This document shows, piece by piece, positions 3,568 through 9,342 of a stretch of DNA of 64,000 bases; position 1 is the first letter of the stretch, and each line of letters begins with the position of its first letter. This DNA comes from an uncultured Methanoregulaceae archaeon (lineage in GTDB: Archaea; Halobacteriota; Methanomicrobia; Methanomicrobiales; Methanospirillaceae): positions 512,001 through 576,000 of the forward strand of contig CAWJAX010000005.1 of assembly GCA_963841015.1 (NCBI GenBank). Direction: 5' to 3'. The translations under genes were made by a program, and so were the position numbers. The notes beneath the pieces are model-generated. The model made no database searches. It was given only the letters and a program-made list of their open reading frames with translations, and was not told the DNA's origin.

Positions 3568-4407
3568 TTACTCGAATTTTGCTACGAGTTTGTTCTTGGA
3601 AACGAGCACGCCGTCTTTCTTGTGGGGCTTTCTGAGAACGGAGTCGTTTGCCTTTTCTATTTCGCGGGCTTCATCACAGAGAATTGCTGCAACTTTCAGC
3701 ATTTCGTGAGCGCTTGCAACGATCGGGATATATTTCTCCCATTCCTTGGTCATGAAGCAGCCCTTGACATTCTGTCCTGCAACAGCCATTGCGATCTCGT
3801 GGGCTGCGCGTGCCTTCGCCAGTGCATAGTTGTTGGTGAACTCACCCTCAACAGCCTTGTCAGTGGTCATGACGATCTTCGGGAGGACAAGTTCTGCGCC
3901 CTTCTTTCCTGCCTTCACCTGGTCGATGACCAAGTCAACAGCGAGCTGGAGTTTGCGGAATGCACCGGTAATTGCCAGAACTTTGACAAGGTTGCCGTTG
4001 AAGTCGGCCATCTCTACGGGGTCAAGGAACTCGCGGCGTGCACCGATCATGGAGTCTGCCTTCATGATGATGTAGCCGAAATTGCTGGCCTTGACTCCTT
4101 CCCATTCCTTCTTCGTGGTCACATCATCGGTTATGATGATGACCGGGATTCCTGCCTTGGCGAGTTCTTCACGGGCACCGGTGGGTCCCGGGAGAACACC
4201 ATTCGGGGAAACCACAATGCAGAAATCTGGTTTCCATGCCTTCATGTTCGTTACGACACGGTCAATGTCTTCCGGCTGGAGTTTCGTCCCGCTGGTCGCC
4301 ATGAATGTCTGCATGTCTTCACGGTCTGCCCTCTCATCGAGAAGCAGCTCAGCCATTACACCACTTGCAATATTGCCGAGTTTGGCAACTCCTACTTTAA
4401 CAACCAT
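3568..4407 (-). CDS. mtd: F420-dependent methylene-H4MPT dehydrogenase
   Basis: [32 protein letters not shown] motifs. Confidence 0.97.
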
Positions 4408-4611: not shown

Positions 4612-5016
4612 ATGAAAGATGGTCTGCTCACTGAACGCCAGATGGAGGTTCTCAGGTACCGTAAACAAGGGCTGACCCAGCAGCAGATTGCTGATATTAT
4701 CTCTACTTCAAAAGCAAATGTCTGCACGATTGAAAAGAGTGCTATGGAGAATATCAGAAGGGCAAAAGAAACACTTGAATTTCTATATACACTGGATGCA
4801 ACACATCTGTGCACTATCCCTTCAGGGACGGATCTCTTTGATGTTCCCTCCATTATCTTTGGTGAAGCAGAAAAAATTAACATAAAAGTGATGTATGATA
4901 CAATTTCCCTCATAAACCGGCTGAGAGAAACCCGTCCCCAGTGTTGTAAAGCCCGTTGTTTATGTGAAGATATTATTGTGTATGTCACTGATCTCGGTGA
5001 ATTGTATTTTGGATGA
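4612..5016 (+). CDS. tfx: Tfx-family DNA-binding protein
   Basis: LLTERQMEVL..R.QGLTQQQIA...TSKANVCTIEKSAMENI HTH, followed by a Tfx C-terminal domain (GTDLFDVP..IFGEA). Confidence 0.85.
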   Translation: MKDGLLTERQMEVLRYRKQGLTQQQIADIISTSKANVCTIEKSAMENIRRAKETLEFLYTLDATHLCTIPSGTDLFDVPSIIFGEAEKINIKVMYDTISLINRLRETRPQCCKARCLCEDIIVYVTDLGELYFG

Positions 5017-5134
5017 AACCGAAATGAAAATCAAAGGATAATAATAAAAAAGCATATTTTTCCTGGAGAATCCGTAGCACGTTGTATCCGGCCATGGGCA
5101 TATGTTTATATTCTTTTTTATGCAATGATTAAGG

Positions 5135-5700
5135 AAGCCGATATGAGGTTATCCTCTGATGTATCCATGTGCTGATTCGATGAAAAGCACATTTTTGATA
5201 TTATCATACGGCGGGACCAGACTTCCGGACACAGGAAAGTCGGTTGTGCCGTGGGTATTCCTCGATTGGTGAACTCCGCACCATAGCGGAGGAAACCCGA
5301 GAAGGAGTTGTGACTCGTCACAACAGGCTGACTAAGTGGGATCTGACCAGCACGCATGGGTCGACGTTTGAACAAACGAGCCCGTTCCACCTGCTCTCTC
5401 ATTGAGCAGATGGATGCGTTATTGTCAGGATCTTCTTTCGCGAGACAGGAAAGCTGGTGTATCAGCTCGTGGATGAGAAAAATATCATCCCAATGTCCGT
5501 AGGCCACATGAAAAAACCGGACGTTCATTAATACCCGAAAAATCCCGCAAATGCGGGTTAGCGTATTACCTGAGTTGTCCGGATTTCTCAACTGGCTTCG
5601 CGTGTTGGCATCTAAACCAGACAACGTTATCACACGGTCTCGGATTAATCAAAAATTCGTGTCGCAAAGGGAATAACCTACACGCAGAAAAAGGATTGAT
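5135..5700 (+). ncRNA. Putative long structured 5' leader or ncRNA upstream of rpl3
   Basis: No credible CDS. A TTTATA box lies at 5105-5110 and about ten hairpins follow, including a nested multibranch domain at 5339-5433. Confidence 0.55.
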
Positions 5701-5706
5701 TAACAT

Positions 5707-6720
5707 ATGCCAAAAATAAACAGACCACGCCGTGGTTCTCTTGCATTCAGCCCAAGAAAGCGTGCAAAGAGCCCGATCCCGAAATACCAATCGTGGCCTC
5801 TCTATGACGGGGCACCGGTACTGCAGGGGTTTGCCGGTTATAAAGTAGGTATGACACACGTTATCATGGTAGATGATCACAAGAACAGTCCTACAGAGGG
5901 GAAGGAAATTATGGTGCCGGTCACCGTTATTGAAATTCCCTCTATGAAGGTCGCTGCGATTCGTGCCTACTCTGAAGATACCTATGGCAAACATGCGCTG
6001 ACAGAAATCTGGGCAGACCAGCTCGATACTGTGCTTGGTCGCCGTATCACCCTGCCGAAGGACTATGACAAAAAGGCTGCTGAGAAGAAATTTTCGGATG
6101 CAGTTGAAGCTGGTACGGTTGCTGAGATCTATGCAGTCTCCTACACACAACCGGCAATTTTATCAGGTGTCCCCAAGAAAGTCCCCGATCTTATGGAGAT
6201 TAAGGTGGGAGGCGGAGACATCAAAAAGCAGTGGGAGTTTGCCCAGGGTATTTTGGGAAAAGAGGTTTTTCTGAACAATGTCCTCCAGTCCGGTGCATAC
6301 GCCGATATTACTGCGATCACCACCGGAAAAGGTACGAATGGTGCAGTAAAACGGTGGGGTATAGCGCTGCGCAAGCGTAAACACTCCGTCGGCGGAAAGG
6401 AGCGCCACCTGGGGACACTCGGACCCTGGAATCCCCATCATGTAAGATGGCAGGTACCCCAGATGGGCCAGCTGGGATTCCAGCAGCGGACAGAGTTTAA
6501 CAAACGTATTTTAAGGATAAGTGAAGACGCGAGCGAGATCACCCCAGCCGGGGGGTTCCTGCACTATGGTGTACTCAGGAGCCCGTATGTCCTGGTCAAG
6601 GGATCCATTCCTGGCCCGGTCAAGCGGCTTATACGTATCCGTCCGGCGATGCGCCTTGGTGAACATGTAGTCAGGATGCCGACAATCCAGTTTGTGAGCG
6701 TCCAGAGCAAACAGGGATGA
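5707..6720 (+). CDS. rpl3: 50S ribosomal protein L3
   Basis: [26 protein letters not shown] motifs. Confidence 0.98.
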
Positions 6721-6726
6721 TCAGAG

Positions 6727-7473
6727 ATGAAAGCACAGGTTAAATCACTTGATGGCGGAATCGCGAAAGATATTGAACTTCCGGAACTCTTTTCCGAGGA
6801 GTACCGCCCCGATCTGATCAAAAAGGCAGTCATGGCCCTTCAGAGCACCCGGCGACAACCCCATGGGACGAATCCGTATGCCGGAATATGTTCTTCAGCA
6901 GTCGGCTGGGGAAGTGGCCGCGGGTCATCGCATGTACCCCGTATCAAGAACGGTTCACGCGCTGCAAAAGTTCCGCAGGCAAAAGGAGGCCGTGAAGCAC
7001 ATCCTCCGAAGGTTGCCAAAATCCTGATCAAAGAGATCAACCAGAAGGAAAAACAAAAGGCATTCCGTTCAGCGGTAGCTGCTAGTATATCTGCGGACCT
7101 CATCCGCGGTCGCGGTCACCGGTTCGAGGGGGCTGTTCCCGTTATCCTTGAGGATAAGTTTGAGTCACTCGACCGTACGCAGGATGTCATATCAGCGCTT
7201 ACTACTGCAGGTGTCTATCATGATATCGAACGGGCAAAGGAGAGCAAGAAAGTCCGTGCAGGAAGAGGCAAAATGCGCGGTCGCAGGTTCAAACAGAGAA
7301 AAAGCCTGCTCATTGTCACCGCAGGAAAACCACTACGGGCAGCACGTAACCTTTCCGGTGTCGATGTTGTAACCGTAGACCAGCTGAATGTCGAGCACCT
7401 TGCACCGGGTATGCTGGCTGGACGTCTCACGGTCTGGACTGAGAGCGCCCTTGTGCGCCTGGAGGGGAGATAA
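6727..7473 (+). CDS. rpl4: 50S ribosomal protein L4
   Basis: YRPDLIKKAV, GSGRG...VPR, LAPG...GRLTVWT. Confidence 0.97.
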   Translation: MKAQVKSLDGGIAKDIELPELFSEEYRPDLIKKAVMALQSTRRQPHGTNPYAGICSSAVGWGSGRGSSHVPRIKNGSRAAKVPQAKGGREAHPPKVAKILIKEINQKEKQKAFRSAVAASISADLIRGRGHRFEGAVPVILEDKFESLDRTQDVISALTTAGVYHDIERAKESKKVRAGRGKMRGRRFKQRKSLLIVTAGKPLRAARNLSGVDVVTVDQLNVEHLAPGMLAGRLTVWTESALVRLEGR

Positions 7474-7722
7474 ATGGTTCTGAAATACCCGTTTGTAACA
7501 GAAAAAGCAATGGTCCTTTTAGAGAACCAGGCAAAACTCCAGTTCCTCGTCAGCCGTGAAGCCTCCAAAAGCCAAATCAAACGTGAAATCGAAAAAGCGT
7601 TTGGACAGAACGTCAAAAACGTTCGCACGCTCATGACCATGCACGGTCAGAAGAAGGCAATTGTGAGTTTTGAGAACGAAAAGGCCGCCGAGGAAATTCT
7701 CAGCCGGCTTGGTATTATGTAG
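7474..7722 (+). CDS. rpl23: 50S ribosomal protein L23
   Basis: P.VTEKA, KKAIV motifs; operon position. Confidence 0.96.
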   Translation: MVLKYPFVTEKAMVLLENQAKLQFLVSREASKSQIKREIEKAFGQNVKNVRTLMTMHGQKKAIVSFENEKAAEEILSRLGIM

Positions 7723-7730
7723 GTGGGAAC

Positions 7731-8447
7731 ATGGGACATCGTATTACAACACAAAGCCGGGGCAAGGGAGGCCCGACCTATCGAGCACCATCCCACCGGT
7801 ACAAGGCCGAACTGAAGCACATCGGTGATGATACACAAAAAATCACGGGAAGTGTCATTGATATTGAACATGATCCGGCACGCAATGCACCGATAGCACT
7901 CGTGAAACTCGAAGATGGGGCCAAAGTCTATATGCTGGTCACCGAAGGTCTCGGTATTGGTGAAATAATTACCTGGGGATCCAATGTTGAGGTAAAGAAC
8001 GGCAACACGCTCACCCTCCAGCATATTCCCACCGGTACATATATTTGCAATATCGAATCACGGCCGAATGATGGCGGCAAATTTGTCCGTGCATCTGGCG
8101 TCCAGGCGGTCGTCATTGATAAGATTGAGGATCGTGTCGGTATCAGAATGCCCAGCGGAAAGACCAAATGGTTCAACCACCGTTGCCGCGCAACTATAGG
8201 AATTGTGGCCGGCGGCGGTCGTGTCGACAAGCCGTTTGTGAAAGCAGGCAACAAGTACCACAAGATGCAGAACACAGCGTCAAACTGGCCACGAGTCCGT
8301 GGTGTTGCAATGAACGTCATCGACCACCCGTTTGGTGGCGGCGGTCACCAGCACACCGGTCGTCCGAAGACGATTGCACGAGGGACCTCTCCGGGCAGGA
8401 CGGTCGGACATGTGGCTGCACGCAGGACAGGTAAGAGCAGGAAGTGA
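7731..8447 (+). CDS. rpl2: 50S ribosomal protein L2
   Basis: HDPAR, WPRVRGVAMN..DHPFGGG. Confidence 0.98.
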   Translation: MGHRITTQSRGKGGPTYRAPSHRYKAELKHIGDDTQKITGSVIDIEHDPARNAPIALVKLEDGAKVYMLVTEGLGIGEIITWGSNVEVKNGNTLTLQHIPTGTYICNIESRPNDGGKFVRASGVQAVVIDKIEDRVGIRMPSGKTKWFNHRCRATIGIVAGGGRVDKPFVKAGNKYHKMQNTASNWPRVRGVAMNVIDHPFGGGGHQHTGRPKTIARGTSPGRTVGHVAARRTGKSRK

Positions 8448-8452
8448 ACGGA

Positions 8453-8872
8453 ATGGCAGCACCAAAAAAGACTCAGAAGAGAATGCCAAGAAGGCGTGAA
8501 GAGTTCACCTATCGGGGATACAGGATAGACGAGCTGAAGGCGATGGGGATTAGCGAACTCCTCCCGCTCATGCCGGCCCGTGCACGCCGCAAGATAGTAC
8601 GCGGTTTCTCCCGTGGTGAAGAAATTTTGCTTACAAAGGTCCGTGATGGGGACGAGAAGATCAGAACGCATCTGCGGGAAATGATTGTCATGCCTGAGAT
8701 GGTGGGCAAATCGATTGAGATTTATAACGGCAAGGAATTCATGAAAGTTGAATTTCAGCCGGAATCTGTTTTCCACTATCTCGGTGAGTTTGCACTGACA
8801 AGAAGGAAGGTCGCTCATGGTAGTGCCGGTATCGGTGCAACACGAGGAAGCAAATACGTTCCGCTGAAGTGA
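8453..8872 (+). CDS. rps19: 30S ribosomal protein S19
   Basis: [26 protein letters not shown]. Confidence 0.97.
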
Positions 8873-8877
8873 TGAAC

Positions 8878-9342
8878 ATGGCACGAATTGATTATTCACA
8901 GAAAATCAGCGGCGACAATATCGCAAAAGCGAAAGCTAACGAACTGAATATGTCGCCCAAGCATTCGATCGAAATTGCTACGTTCATCAGGCATCAGCGC
9001 GTAAACGACGCAATCGCGTACCTGAATGATGTCGTGGGTTTAAAGAAAGCAATCCCGTTCCGGCGTTTTAACCGGAATGTGGCGCACAAACGCGGTCTCC
9101 CGGGAAACTGGGATGCAGGAAGGTACCCGGTGAAGGCATCGAAGGCATATATCCGGGTTCTTGAATCGGTTAAGAAGAATGCCGAGTATATCGGTCTCGA
9201 TGCTGATAATCTTGAGATCATCCACGTATCGGCTAACCGCGGGCGCGCCCAGAAATCTTTCTTCCCCCGTGCAATGGGACGAGCGACCCCCAAGGTCCGT
9301 GAAAGTGTGAACATTGAAGTTATAGTCCGCGAGGTGGTGTAA
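8878..9342 (+). CDS. rpl22: 50S ribosomal protein L22
   Basis: [22 protein letters not shown]. Confidence 0.97.

Follow-up and report, generated by a model that had tools for sequence, protein, structure and literature searches.

The leader that precedes rpl3 in the archaeal genome analysed here is, judged by comparison with its relatives, a gene remnant: the stretch at 5131-5706 appears to descend from a COG2106/PF02598 SPOUT RNA-methyltransferase gene that formerly headed the operon. About 200 nt with an RNA fold survive recognisably, with their reading frames broken, and these by the same comparison were formerly codons of the OB-fold insert of the enzyme; the parts that coded for the N- and C-terminal regions have been lost to decay or deletion. 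Gene decay accounts for the unusual length of the leader, which measures about 575 nt between the inferred start of transcription and the ATG. The fold is under selection as RNA, both in leaders that have lost the gene and inside coding sequences that remain intact, and we consider it probable that the leader combines a gene relic with a retained, selected RNA domain that acts in cis. All coordinates refer to a 64,000-nt stretch (the window) of contig CAWJAX010000005.1 from an uncultured Methanoregulaceae archaeon of the order Methanomicrobiales, and the features of the locus are collected in Table 1.

Table 1. Features of the rpl3 leader and its surroundings in the window.
Feature	Position	Strand	Basis or remark
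Tfx-family DNA-binding protein gene	4612-5016	+	Pfam PF14601 TFX_C, E 2e-31
Promoter block ending in TATA box TTTATAT (5105-5111)	5096-5111	+	Invariant or nearly so in 21 genomes of the genus
5' element, core GGAAGCC plus AUAUGAGG, at the inferred transcript start	5131-5154	+	Invariant block in the genus
Variable inner 5' domain with hairpins 5167-5173/5186-5192 and 5209-5213/5248-5252	5157-5259	+	
3' partner of the 5' element, closing the 5' domain	5260-5270	+	RNAalifold, duplex energies
Hairpin a, upstream of the Rfam model	5274-5291	+	Model R1
Invariant linker, hairpin b (5307-5313/5318-5324), second linker	5297-5338	+	Invariant in 21 genomes
RF03135 (L4-Archaeoglobi) three-way junction	5339-5433; Rfam match 5343-5428	+	Covariance model
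Invariant pyrimidine-rich block after P1	5431-5447	+	Corresponds to I-Y-S-R-D codons of intact genes plus 2 extra bases
Hairpin c, downstream of the Rfam model	5452-5467	+	Helix 6 of model R2
Variable spacer; its hairpins 5471-5476/5485-5490 and 5545-5549/5554-5558 are lineage-specific	5468-5597	+	Poorly alignable in the genus
3' end of the leader, with conserved blocks 5598-5609 and 5639-5650 and predicted hairpin 5658-5662/5680-5684	5598-5706	+	Invariant, 21 genomes
rpl3 (rpl4 starts at 6727)	5707-6720	+	
Downstream operon rpl3, rpl4, rpl23, rpl2, rps19, rpl22 (and further genes)	5707-9342	+	Pfam L3, L4, L23, L2, S19, L22

The gap between the Tfx-like gene and rpl3 measures 690 nt, and the succession of a Tfx gene, a long spacer and rpl3 is found across the order. 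Within the genus to which the window belongs, the intergenic DNA was matched in 22 of 24 genomes, and the same gene order is kept in 21 genomes with spacers of 624-745 nt. These 21 genomes show no alignable conservation 5' of about position 5093; invariant or nearly invariant blocks (the promoter, 5131-5154, 5297-5338, 5431-5447, 5598-5609, 5639-5650 and the region just before the start codon) are separated by variable hairpins. A TATA-like box also lies about 20-30 nt before the 5' element in most other genera, the pattern matching 45 of 49 loci, and we infer that transcription starts at about 5131-5136. When folded as RNA, positions 5135-5706 reached -200.5 kcal/mol, compared with -162.6 ± 5.7 kcal/mol for 100 dinucleotide shuffles (z -6.6), none of which folded as well.

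An earlier note, made from the letters of this DNA alone, had described a very long, structured leader ahead of rpl3-rpl4-rpl23-rpl2-rps19-rpl22, and both this folding energy and the blocks conserved in 21 genomes bear out that description. The stems it listed are all present, at 5167-5173/5186-5192, 5220-5226/5235-5242, 5274-5279/5286-5291 and 5307-5313/5318-5324, as are the nested domain at 5339-5433 and the stems at 5452-5456/5463-5467, 5471-5476/5485-5490 and 5545-5549/5554-5558. Its statement that the region holds no credible coding sequence agrees with our examination of the four leader ORFs, at 5118-5633 (minus strand), 5244-5405, 5356-5502 and 5551-5676: none has a Pfam match, and their frames vary among relatives. 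As to the wider neighbourhood, a Tfx-family gene is the immediate 5' neighbour of either the rpl3 leader or the methyltransferase gene in nearly all loci of the order that were inspected (L001-L112), and small transcription factors do not usually keep so steady a neighbourhood. Farther upstream, before the Tfx gene, lies mtd (methylene-tetrahydromethanopterin dehydrogenase, 3568-4407 on the minus strand; PF01993, E 1e-105), a gene compatible with a hydrogenotrophic methanogen.

The nested domain belongs to a known RNA family. A covariance model search matched RF03135 on the plus strand with 60.6 bits, against a cut-off of 34.5 (E 7e-10), over the full model (positions 1-85); the core is therefore not new. 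This is the sole Rfam family above threshold in the window, and here the motif lies 5' of the rplC/rplD operon, as the family is defined. The closing stem P1 extends beyond the Rfam match, to 5339-5347/5424-5433. LhrC, nuoG, the C/D-box snoRNA and STnc410, which came up in a permissive Rfam scan of 4950-5800, all had E above 1 and were rejected as leader families. The earlier note had recommended a cmscan that included L4-Archaeoglobi, and it was this check that identified the nested domain. Its proposal of an undescribed r-protein leader is accordingly supported in part, in that the region is a very long, conserved and structured leader of the operon, and falls for the nested domain, which had already been described, while its caution that a known family might explain the whole region applies to only 86 of the roughly 575 nt.

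RF03135 was described by Eckert & Weinberg 2020 (PMC7247131), where L4 is named as the likely ligand 'by precedent' and the motif is rated '?' in Table 1; notwithstanding the name of the family, haloarchaeal, methanogen-like and metagenome sequences already stand side by side in the seed alignment of supplementary file 2. The window and the published motif are alike in their three-way junction and in their position ahead of rplC-rplD-rplW-rplB. They differ in extent, however: the conserved structure here spans about 340 nt, not 85. Its P1 is longer, hairpins a and b precede the Rfam core, hairpin c follows it, and a predicted helix with the 5' end of the transcript closes the whole. The label 'leader' also fits poorly with the rest of the phylum, most of which has the motif in the middle of the PF02598 coding sequence.

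Among 121 sampled genomes of the order, 61 carry RF03135 above the cut-off, once per genome save for one extra match each in G130 and G140, and it lies between the Tfx gene and rpl3 in every order locus examined. In a phylum sample of 151 genomes, 82 have a match above the cut-off and 90 have one with an E of 0.001 or better. The motif is non-coding in the window and in 63 gene-less loci of the order; it lies within an open PF02598 frame in the five intact loci of the order and in 28 of the 28 phylum loci fetched, where its coordinates fall within the listed PF02598 matches. Haloferax volcanii, used in control searches, matched both RF03135 and PF02598.

Three genera of the order provide the intact counterpart of the leader. 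In loci L033, L034 and L035, one from each genus, the spacer between the Tfx gene and rpl3 measures 1070-1600 nt and holds an ORF of 277-282 aa that matches PF02598 (Methyltrn_RNA_3) over its full length (E 1.5e-51 to 3.6e-57). The encoded protein matches PDB 1k3r (MT0001) at E 3.8e-40, and a search of the intact protein against NCBIfam returned no model. COG2106 is characterised in the passages of PMC1829167 that treat it as a SPOUT fold with an inserted OB-fold domain, and the corresponding passages of PMC2584109 place its genes in ribosomal-protein operons of diverse archaea and propose that the enzyme is a 23S m3U methyltransferase. Altogether PF02598 was found in 5 of the 121 genomes of the order, equivalent to 3 of 30 genera, and was not found in the other 116 by a search that reads through stop codons. 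In the phylum sample it was detected in 80 of 151 genomes, with 79 of 127 for the rest of the phylum outside the order. The methyltransferase stop codon in L033-L035 lies 15-81 nt before the rpl3 ATG, so that the rpl3 ribosome-binding site falls at the end of the upstream gene; this arrangement suggests translational coupling in the intact relatives, for which the gene-less lineages would have needed a replacement.

The leader of the window occupies the same genomic slot, directly 5' of rpl3, as this SPOUT methyltransferase gene (COG2106/PF02598; MT0001, PDB 1k3r; human C9orf114). In contrast to the intact genes, it keeps only residues ~105-159 in readable form, in two frames, and the gene itself is gone: tblastn with the intact proteins recovered residues ~105-121 and 124-159 in different frames, and across the leaders of the genus it recovered residues ~100-166 only. 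Frameshifts and one stop interrupt the relic and both SPOUT halves have disappeared, and so the single open frame with SPOUT halves and OB-fold insert that constitutes a PF02598 gene is absent from the window. No PF02598 match was found in the genome of the window (94% complete) at E up to 10, and the same tblastn search gave nothing significant for a methyltransferase trace in 5468-5597. The surviving part can be matched to specific codons. In intact genes the two P1 strands encode G-S-D and V-R-I and hairpin b encodes V-V-x-x-H-N, and the invariant stretch 5297-5338 corresponds to R-E-G-V-V...H-N-G codons of the OB-fold insert. Across the genus the centre of the leader retains about 75-80% nucleotide identity, while the flanking coding parts are unrecognisable. 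Separately, the block at 5639-5650 aligns to codons of the C-terminal SPOUT motif in intact genes and may be a second retained relic.

We evaluated selection on the RNA fold in two ways, using covariation and synonymous sites. For the former, a covariance model (R2) comprising the core with the longer P1 and hairpin c was built from the genus alignment; it matched all 63 gene-less loci and 31 of the 32 intact ones. A cross-genus alignment made with MAFFT only (A2) misplaced the variable hairpins, and covariance-model alignments were used instead. In the gene-less set, 94.2% of cells were paired, 24 of 37 pairs showed compensatory change and the covariation score was 0.411 (best slid control 0.083); in the intact-gene set the corresponding values were 91.9%, 18 of 37 pairs and 0.300 (best slid control 0.078), with the proviso for both sets that the alignments follow the structure of the model and that the sequences share ancestry, problems that the controls lessen and do not abolish. 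The earlier note had called for a covariation analysis of rpl3 upstream regions, and the compensatory changes of the gene-less loci supply a positive answer within a model-fitted alignment.

The synonymous-site check is free of model-fitted alignments. Across 31 intact genes, third-codon-position entropy was 0.90 bits in motif codons versus 1.27 outside, with equal amino-acid identity in the same comparison (0.69 in the motif, 0.66 outside), and the entropy minima fell on the two flanks that form P1, P1b and P2. When restricted to conserved four- and sixfold degenerate columns, entropy was 0.88 in the motif (n=17) versus 1.25 elsewhere (n=92; Mann-Whitney p 0.025). Together with the retention of the fold in loci without the gene, these results suggest that selection guards the fold, not the gene.

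The distribution of intact and gene-less loci bears on how often the gene was lost. In an L3 tree (220 columns, quick search), the three intact-gene genera fall in three places among gene-less genera, and two family-level groups each contain both intact and gene-less genera. Parsimony gives four state changes on this tree, a loss-only reading of the tree as drawn gives seven to eight losses, and the strongly supported branches alone force one state change. A 1-nt deletion before P1 is common to the window's genus and the genera nearest to it and does not occur in the other gene-less genera, and the fold piece has been kept in at least 15 gene-less genera. From these sequence comparisons, repeated loss of the gene with retention of the fold is likely. 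Outside the order, the sole RF03135 matches without PF02598 that we noticed are in G178 and G206 (family f14, genus g46), both weak at 31-32 bits and below the cut-off; their sister genome G201 has both, and this group may represent a second lineage that lost the gene and kept the fold. PF02598 and RF03135 are both absent from whole families of the phylum sample, namely f7 (0/18), f15 (0/19), f11 and f12. A search of contigs with a 27-nt leader pattern returned two records only, one titled Methanomicrobiales. L115, a contig of a MAG titled uncultured Eubacteriales bacterium, matches all 27 positions of the archaeal pattern exactly and is probably mis-binned or mislabelled.

Within the order the conserved structure extends well beyond the Rfam core. 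Hairpins a and b were combined in a second model, R1, which matched 55 of 63 gene-less and 5 of 5 intact loci of the order (60 of 68), compared with 1 of 28 phylum loci, and that one weakly; the upstream extension is therefore specific to the order. Compensatory changes occur in 6 of 6 pairs of hairpin a (88.5% of cells paired), in 2 of 7 pairs of hairpin b (99.1%) and, in the gene-less set, in 5 of 5 pairs of hairpin c (95.4%). At the other end of the leader, a Shine-Dalgarno-like GGAUUGA is located at 5693-5699, before the ATG at 5707. Two further pairings proposed by RNAalifold were set aside: the bases of an outer helix at 5299-5307/5431-5440 are invariant in the genus, and by eye its pairing is lost in other genera; all bases of a pairing at 5297-5301/5639-5643 are invariant in the genus, and it is consequently not claimed.

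The 5' end of the transcript may take part in this structure. RNAalifold predicts pairing of the 5' element with 5260-5270, with one pair changing from AU to GC in 6 of 21 sequences, and predicted duplexes with the cognate partner average -19.35 kcal/mol (n=43, 24 of them from one genus) versus -13.0 ± 3.6 kcal/mol with partners from other genera (n=1234). The inner 5' domain that this helix would close is variable, and its outer stem shows 5-10 compensatory sequences per pair (alignment columns 31-36 with 78-84). In intact-gene relatives the 5' element forms the 5' UTR immediately ahead of the start codon of the methyltransferase, and the place of 5157-5259 is taken by about 300 nt that encode the N-terminal half of the enzyme. 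The distance between the 5' element and its partner is accordingly 86-119 nt in the gene-less genus versus about 300 nt in L033 and L034, and in intact genes a 5'-end helix, as modelled, would enclose the start codon together with about 300 nt of coding sequence.

The gene remnant could in principle be still functional as a gene or, at the other extreme, functionless. That the leader still encodes a small OB-fold protein, or the methyltransferase through programmed frameshifts, would fit the open frames of 120-203 aa that run across the motif in some GC-rich relatives, but the reading frames otherwise speak strongly against it. Of 31 intact genes, 30 have the two P1 strands in the same frame; no stop falls between the strands, and open frames measure 283 aa or more. 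Among the 63 gene-less loci the offset between the strands is spread over the three frames (28, 18 and 17 loci), 22 loci contain stops, and open frames have a median length of 77 aa. With PF02598 missing from 116 of 121 order genomes even when stops are read through, and the ORFs of the window's leader lacking any Pfam match, we regard continued coding as the least credible of the explanations considered. A plain pseudogene, with a centre conserved through slow decay or recent loss, is scarcely more probable. The leader is indeed a gene relic and several of its conserved blocks correspond to formerly conserved codons, yet slow or recent decay does not account for a centre that stays similar across the genus next to flanks that can no longer be recognised, for stems whose pairs change in a compensatory manner and whose lengths change by numbers not divisible by three, or for the retention of this one piece in at least 15 gene-less genera.

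The remaining alternatives concern the transcript. RNA libraries of four studies yielded contigs that map to the leader (5156-5277, 5179-5447 and 5248-5435), a further contig lies within it (5419-5698), and contigs from three studies bridge the leader and rpl3 (5406-5758, 5470-5786 and 5628-5758); as metatranscriptome contigs they do not reveal RNA ends and may include DNA carry-over. In four RNA runs there is essentially no contig over 4967-5128, the gap between the Tfx gene and the leader, an uncovered stretch that carries no evidential weight. Contig depth is greater over 5210-5450 than over rpl3, although such depths cannot rank regions. The earlier note had offered an independent non-coding RNA as one of its interpretations, which would here be a stable small RNA of about 300-350 nt made from the promoter at 5105 and ending before rpl3, with rpl3 served by a promoter of its own. 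The variable spacer does separate the conserved structured part (5131-5467) from rpl3. Nevertheless, the contigs at 5406-5758, 5470-5786 and 5419-5698 join the two sides and RNA-library contigs continue from the leader into rpl3, no conserved TATA-like box was seen in 5470-5700 in alignments inspected by eye, and the same bases form the middle of an mRNA coding region in relatives, which together make a separate small RNA very unlikely. In one run (X10), contig joints from 5447 to 5614 and from 5459 to 5658 skip 166 and 198 nt of the variable spacer; these contigs have 90% likeness to the window and most likely come from relatives with a different spacer, splicing and RNA processing being less likely.

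Alternatively, the fold could be a processing or stability element that guides or times an endonuclease cut near the ribosome-binding site without sensing any ribosomal protein; until that cut, the bulky leader would hold translation of the primary transcript at a low level. There is precedent in the passages of Qi et al. 2017 (PMC5499594) on Methanolobus psychrophilus, which report that its ribosomal-protein operons have long 5' UTRs (mean 154 nt), that cleavage mostly takes place 20-30 nt ahead of the start codon, and that the RNAs gain in stability and are translated better once processed. The leader described here is likewise an exceptionally long structured 5' UTR on a methanogen ribosomal-protein operon, but at about 575 nt it far exceeds the mean given there. 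Conserved blocks and a predicted hairpin right before the Shine-Dalgarno-like sequence (5598-5706) would suit such a cut. This explanation nonetheless gives no account of why the fold is kept inside intact coding sequences across the phylum, and we consider it unlikely as the whole explanation; it can coexist with a retained cis-acting domain.

How a retained cis-acting domain would work can be outlined by analogy. The E. coli S10 operon leader is a structured RNA regulated by L4. Both leaders are structured RNAs ahead of an operon for L3, L4, L23, L2, S19 and L22; they differ in that no sequence or Rfam-level relation exists between them (only RF03135 was above threshold in the window), in the first gene (there is no S10 gene at this place in archaea), and in the ancestral location of the present fold within a coding sequence. 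By this analogy, the fold would act in cis on expression of the operon as the putative binding site of a ribosomal protein that the operon encodes. The candidate ligand is uL4, as the Rfam name assumes, and an excess of free ribosomal protein would lower the output of rpl3 and the genes behind it. Output could conceivably be lowered through decay or processing of the transcript, through premature termination, or by masking, over a long range, the start region of rpl3 some 280 nt downstream; the RF03135 motif lies 279 nt from the rpl3 start, which is far for direct masking of the ribosome-binding site. A comparison with the 23S rRNA of this genome for mimicry found 9 shared 9-mers versus 7.1 ± 3.3 in shuffles, with no extended match to the core. 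Feedback by a ribosomal protein from the operon is the leading candidate for the function of the fold, but the specific mechanism, with L4 as the ligand, is one that we hold with somewhat more doubt than conviction.

A broader evolutionary scenario would connect these observations. The RNA fold may ancestrally have resided inside the rRNA-methyltransferase coding sequence that heads the largest archaeal ribosomal-protein operon, serving as a feedback sensor embedded in that coding sequence; in this order the host gene would have died, probably several times, with the fold kept each time and subsequently enlarged to a leader structure of some 340 nt that a helix clamps to the 5' end of the transcript. 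We advance this scenario tentatively, with the balance tipped slightly against it.

Two components of this picture were known already, namely the RF03135 core and the long structured leaders of methanogen ribosomal-protein operons. Within the literature searched, which covers PMC7247131 apart from its supplementary text, three are new: the origin of a leader from a gene relic, the domain of about 340 nt in this order, and the finding that most genomes with RF03135 have it within a coding sequence. We found no statement placing RF03135 inside the PF02598 coding sequence in that literature, and the supplementary text may mention it. For annotation, RF03135 matches usually overlap a real gene, and the 'large intergenic regions' ahead of rpl3 in Methanomicrobiales are gene relics. 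Most of the order, moreover, is without the COG2106 enzyme.

To our knowledge, autoregulation of an S10-like operon has not been demonstrated in archaea, and the Methanococcus L1 system is the sole archaeal case we know to have been worked out. The lineages compared here constitute a natural experiment with three states: haloarchaea and three genera of Methanomicrobiales have the fold within a functional gene, the genus of the window and no fewer than 14 others have only the fold, in a leader, and several families have neither. This contrast separates protein constraints from RNA constraints, and Haloferax volcanii, with matches to both RF03135 and PF02598, is a tractable organism in which to test them. 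If the fold is indeed a sensor embedded in a coding sequence, RF03135 would be wrongly classed as a 'leader' in the majority of archaea in which it occurs, and this lineage would show a coding sequence becoming a riboregulator.
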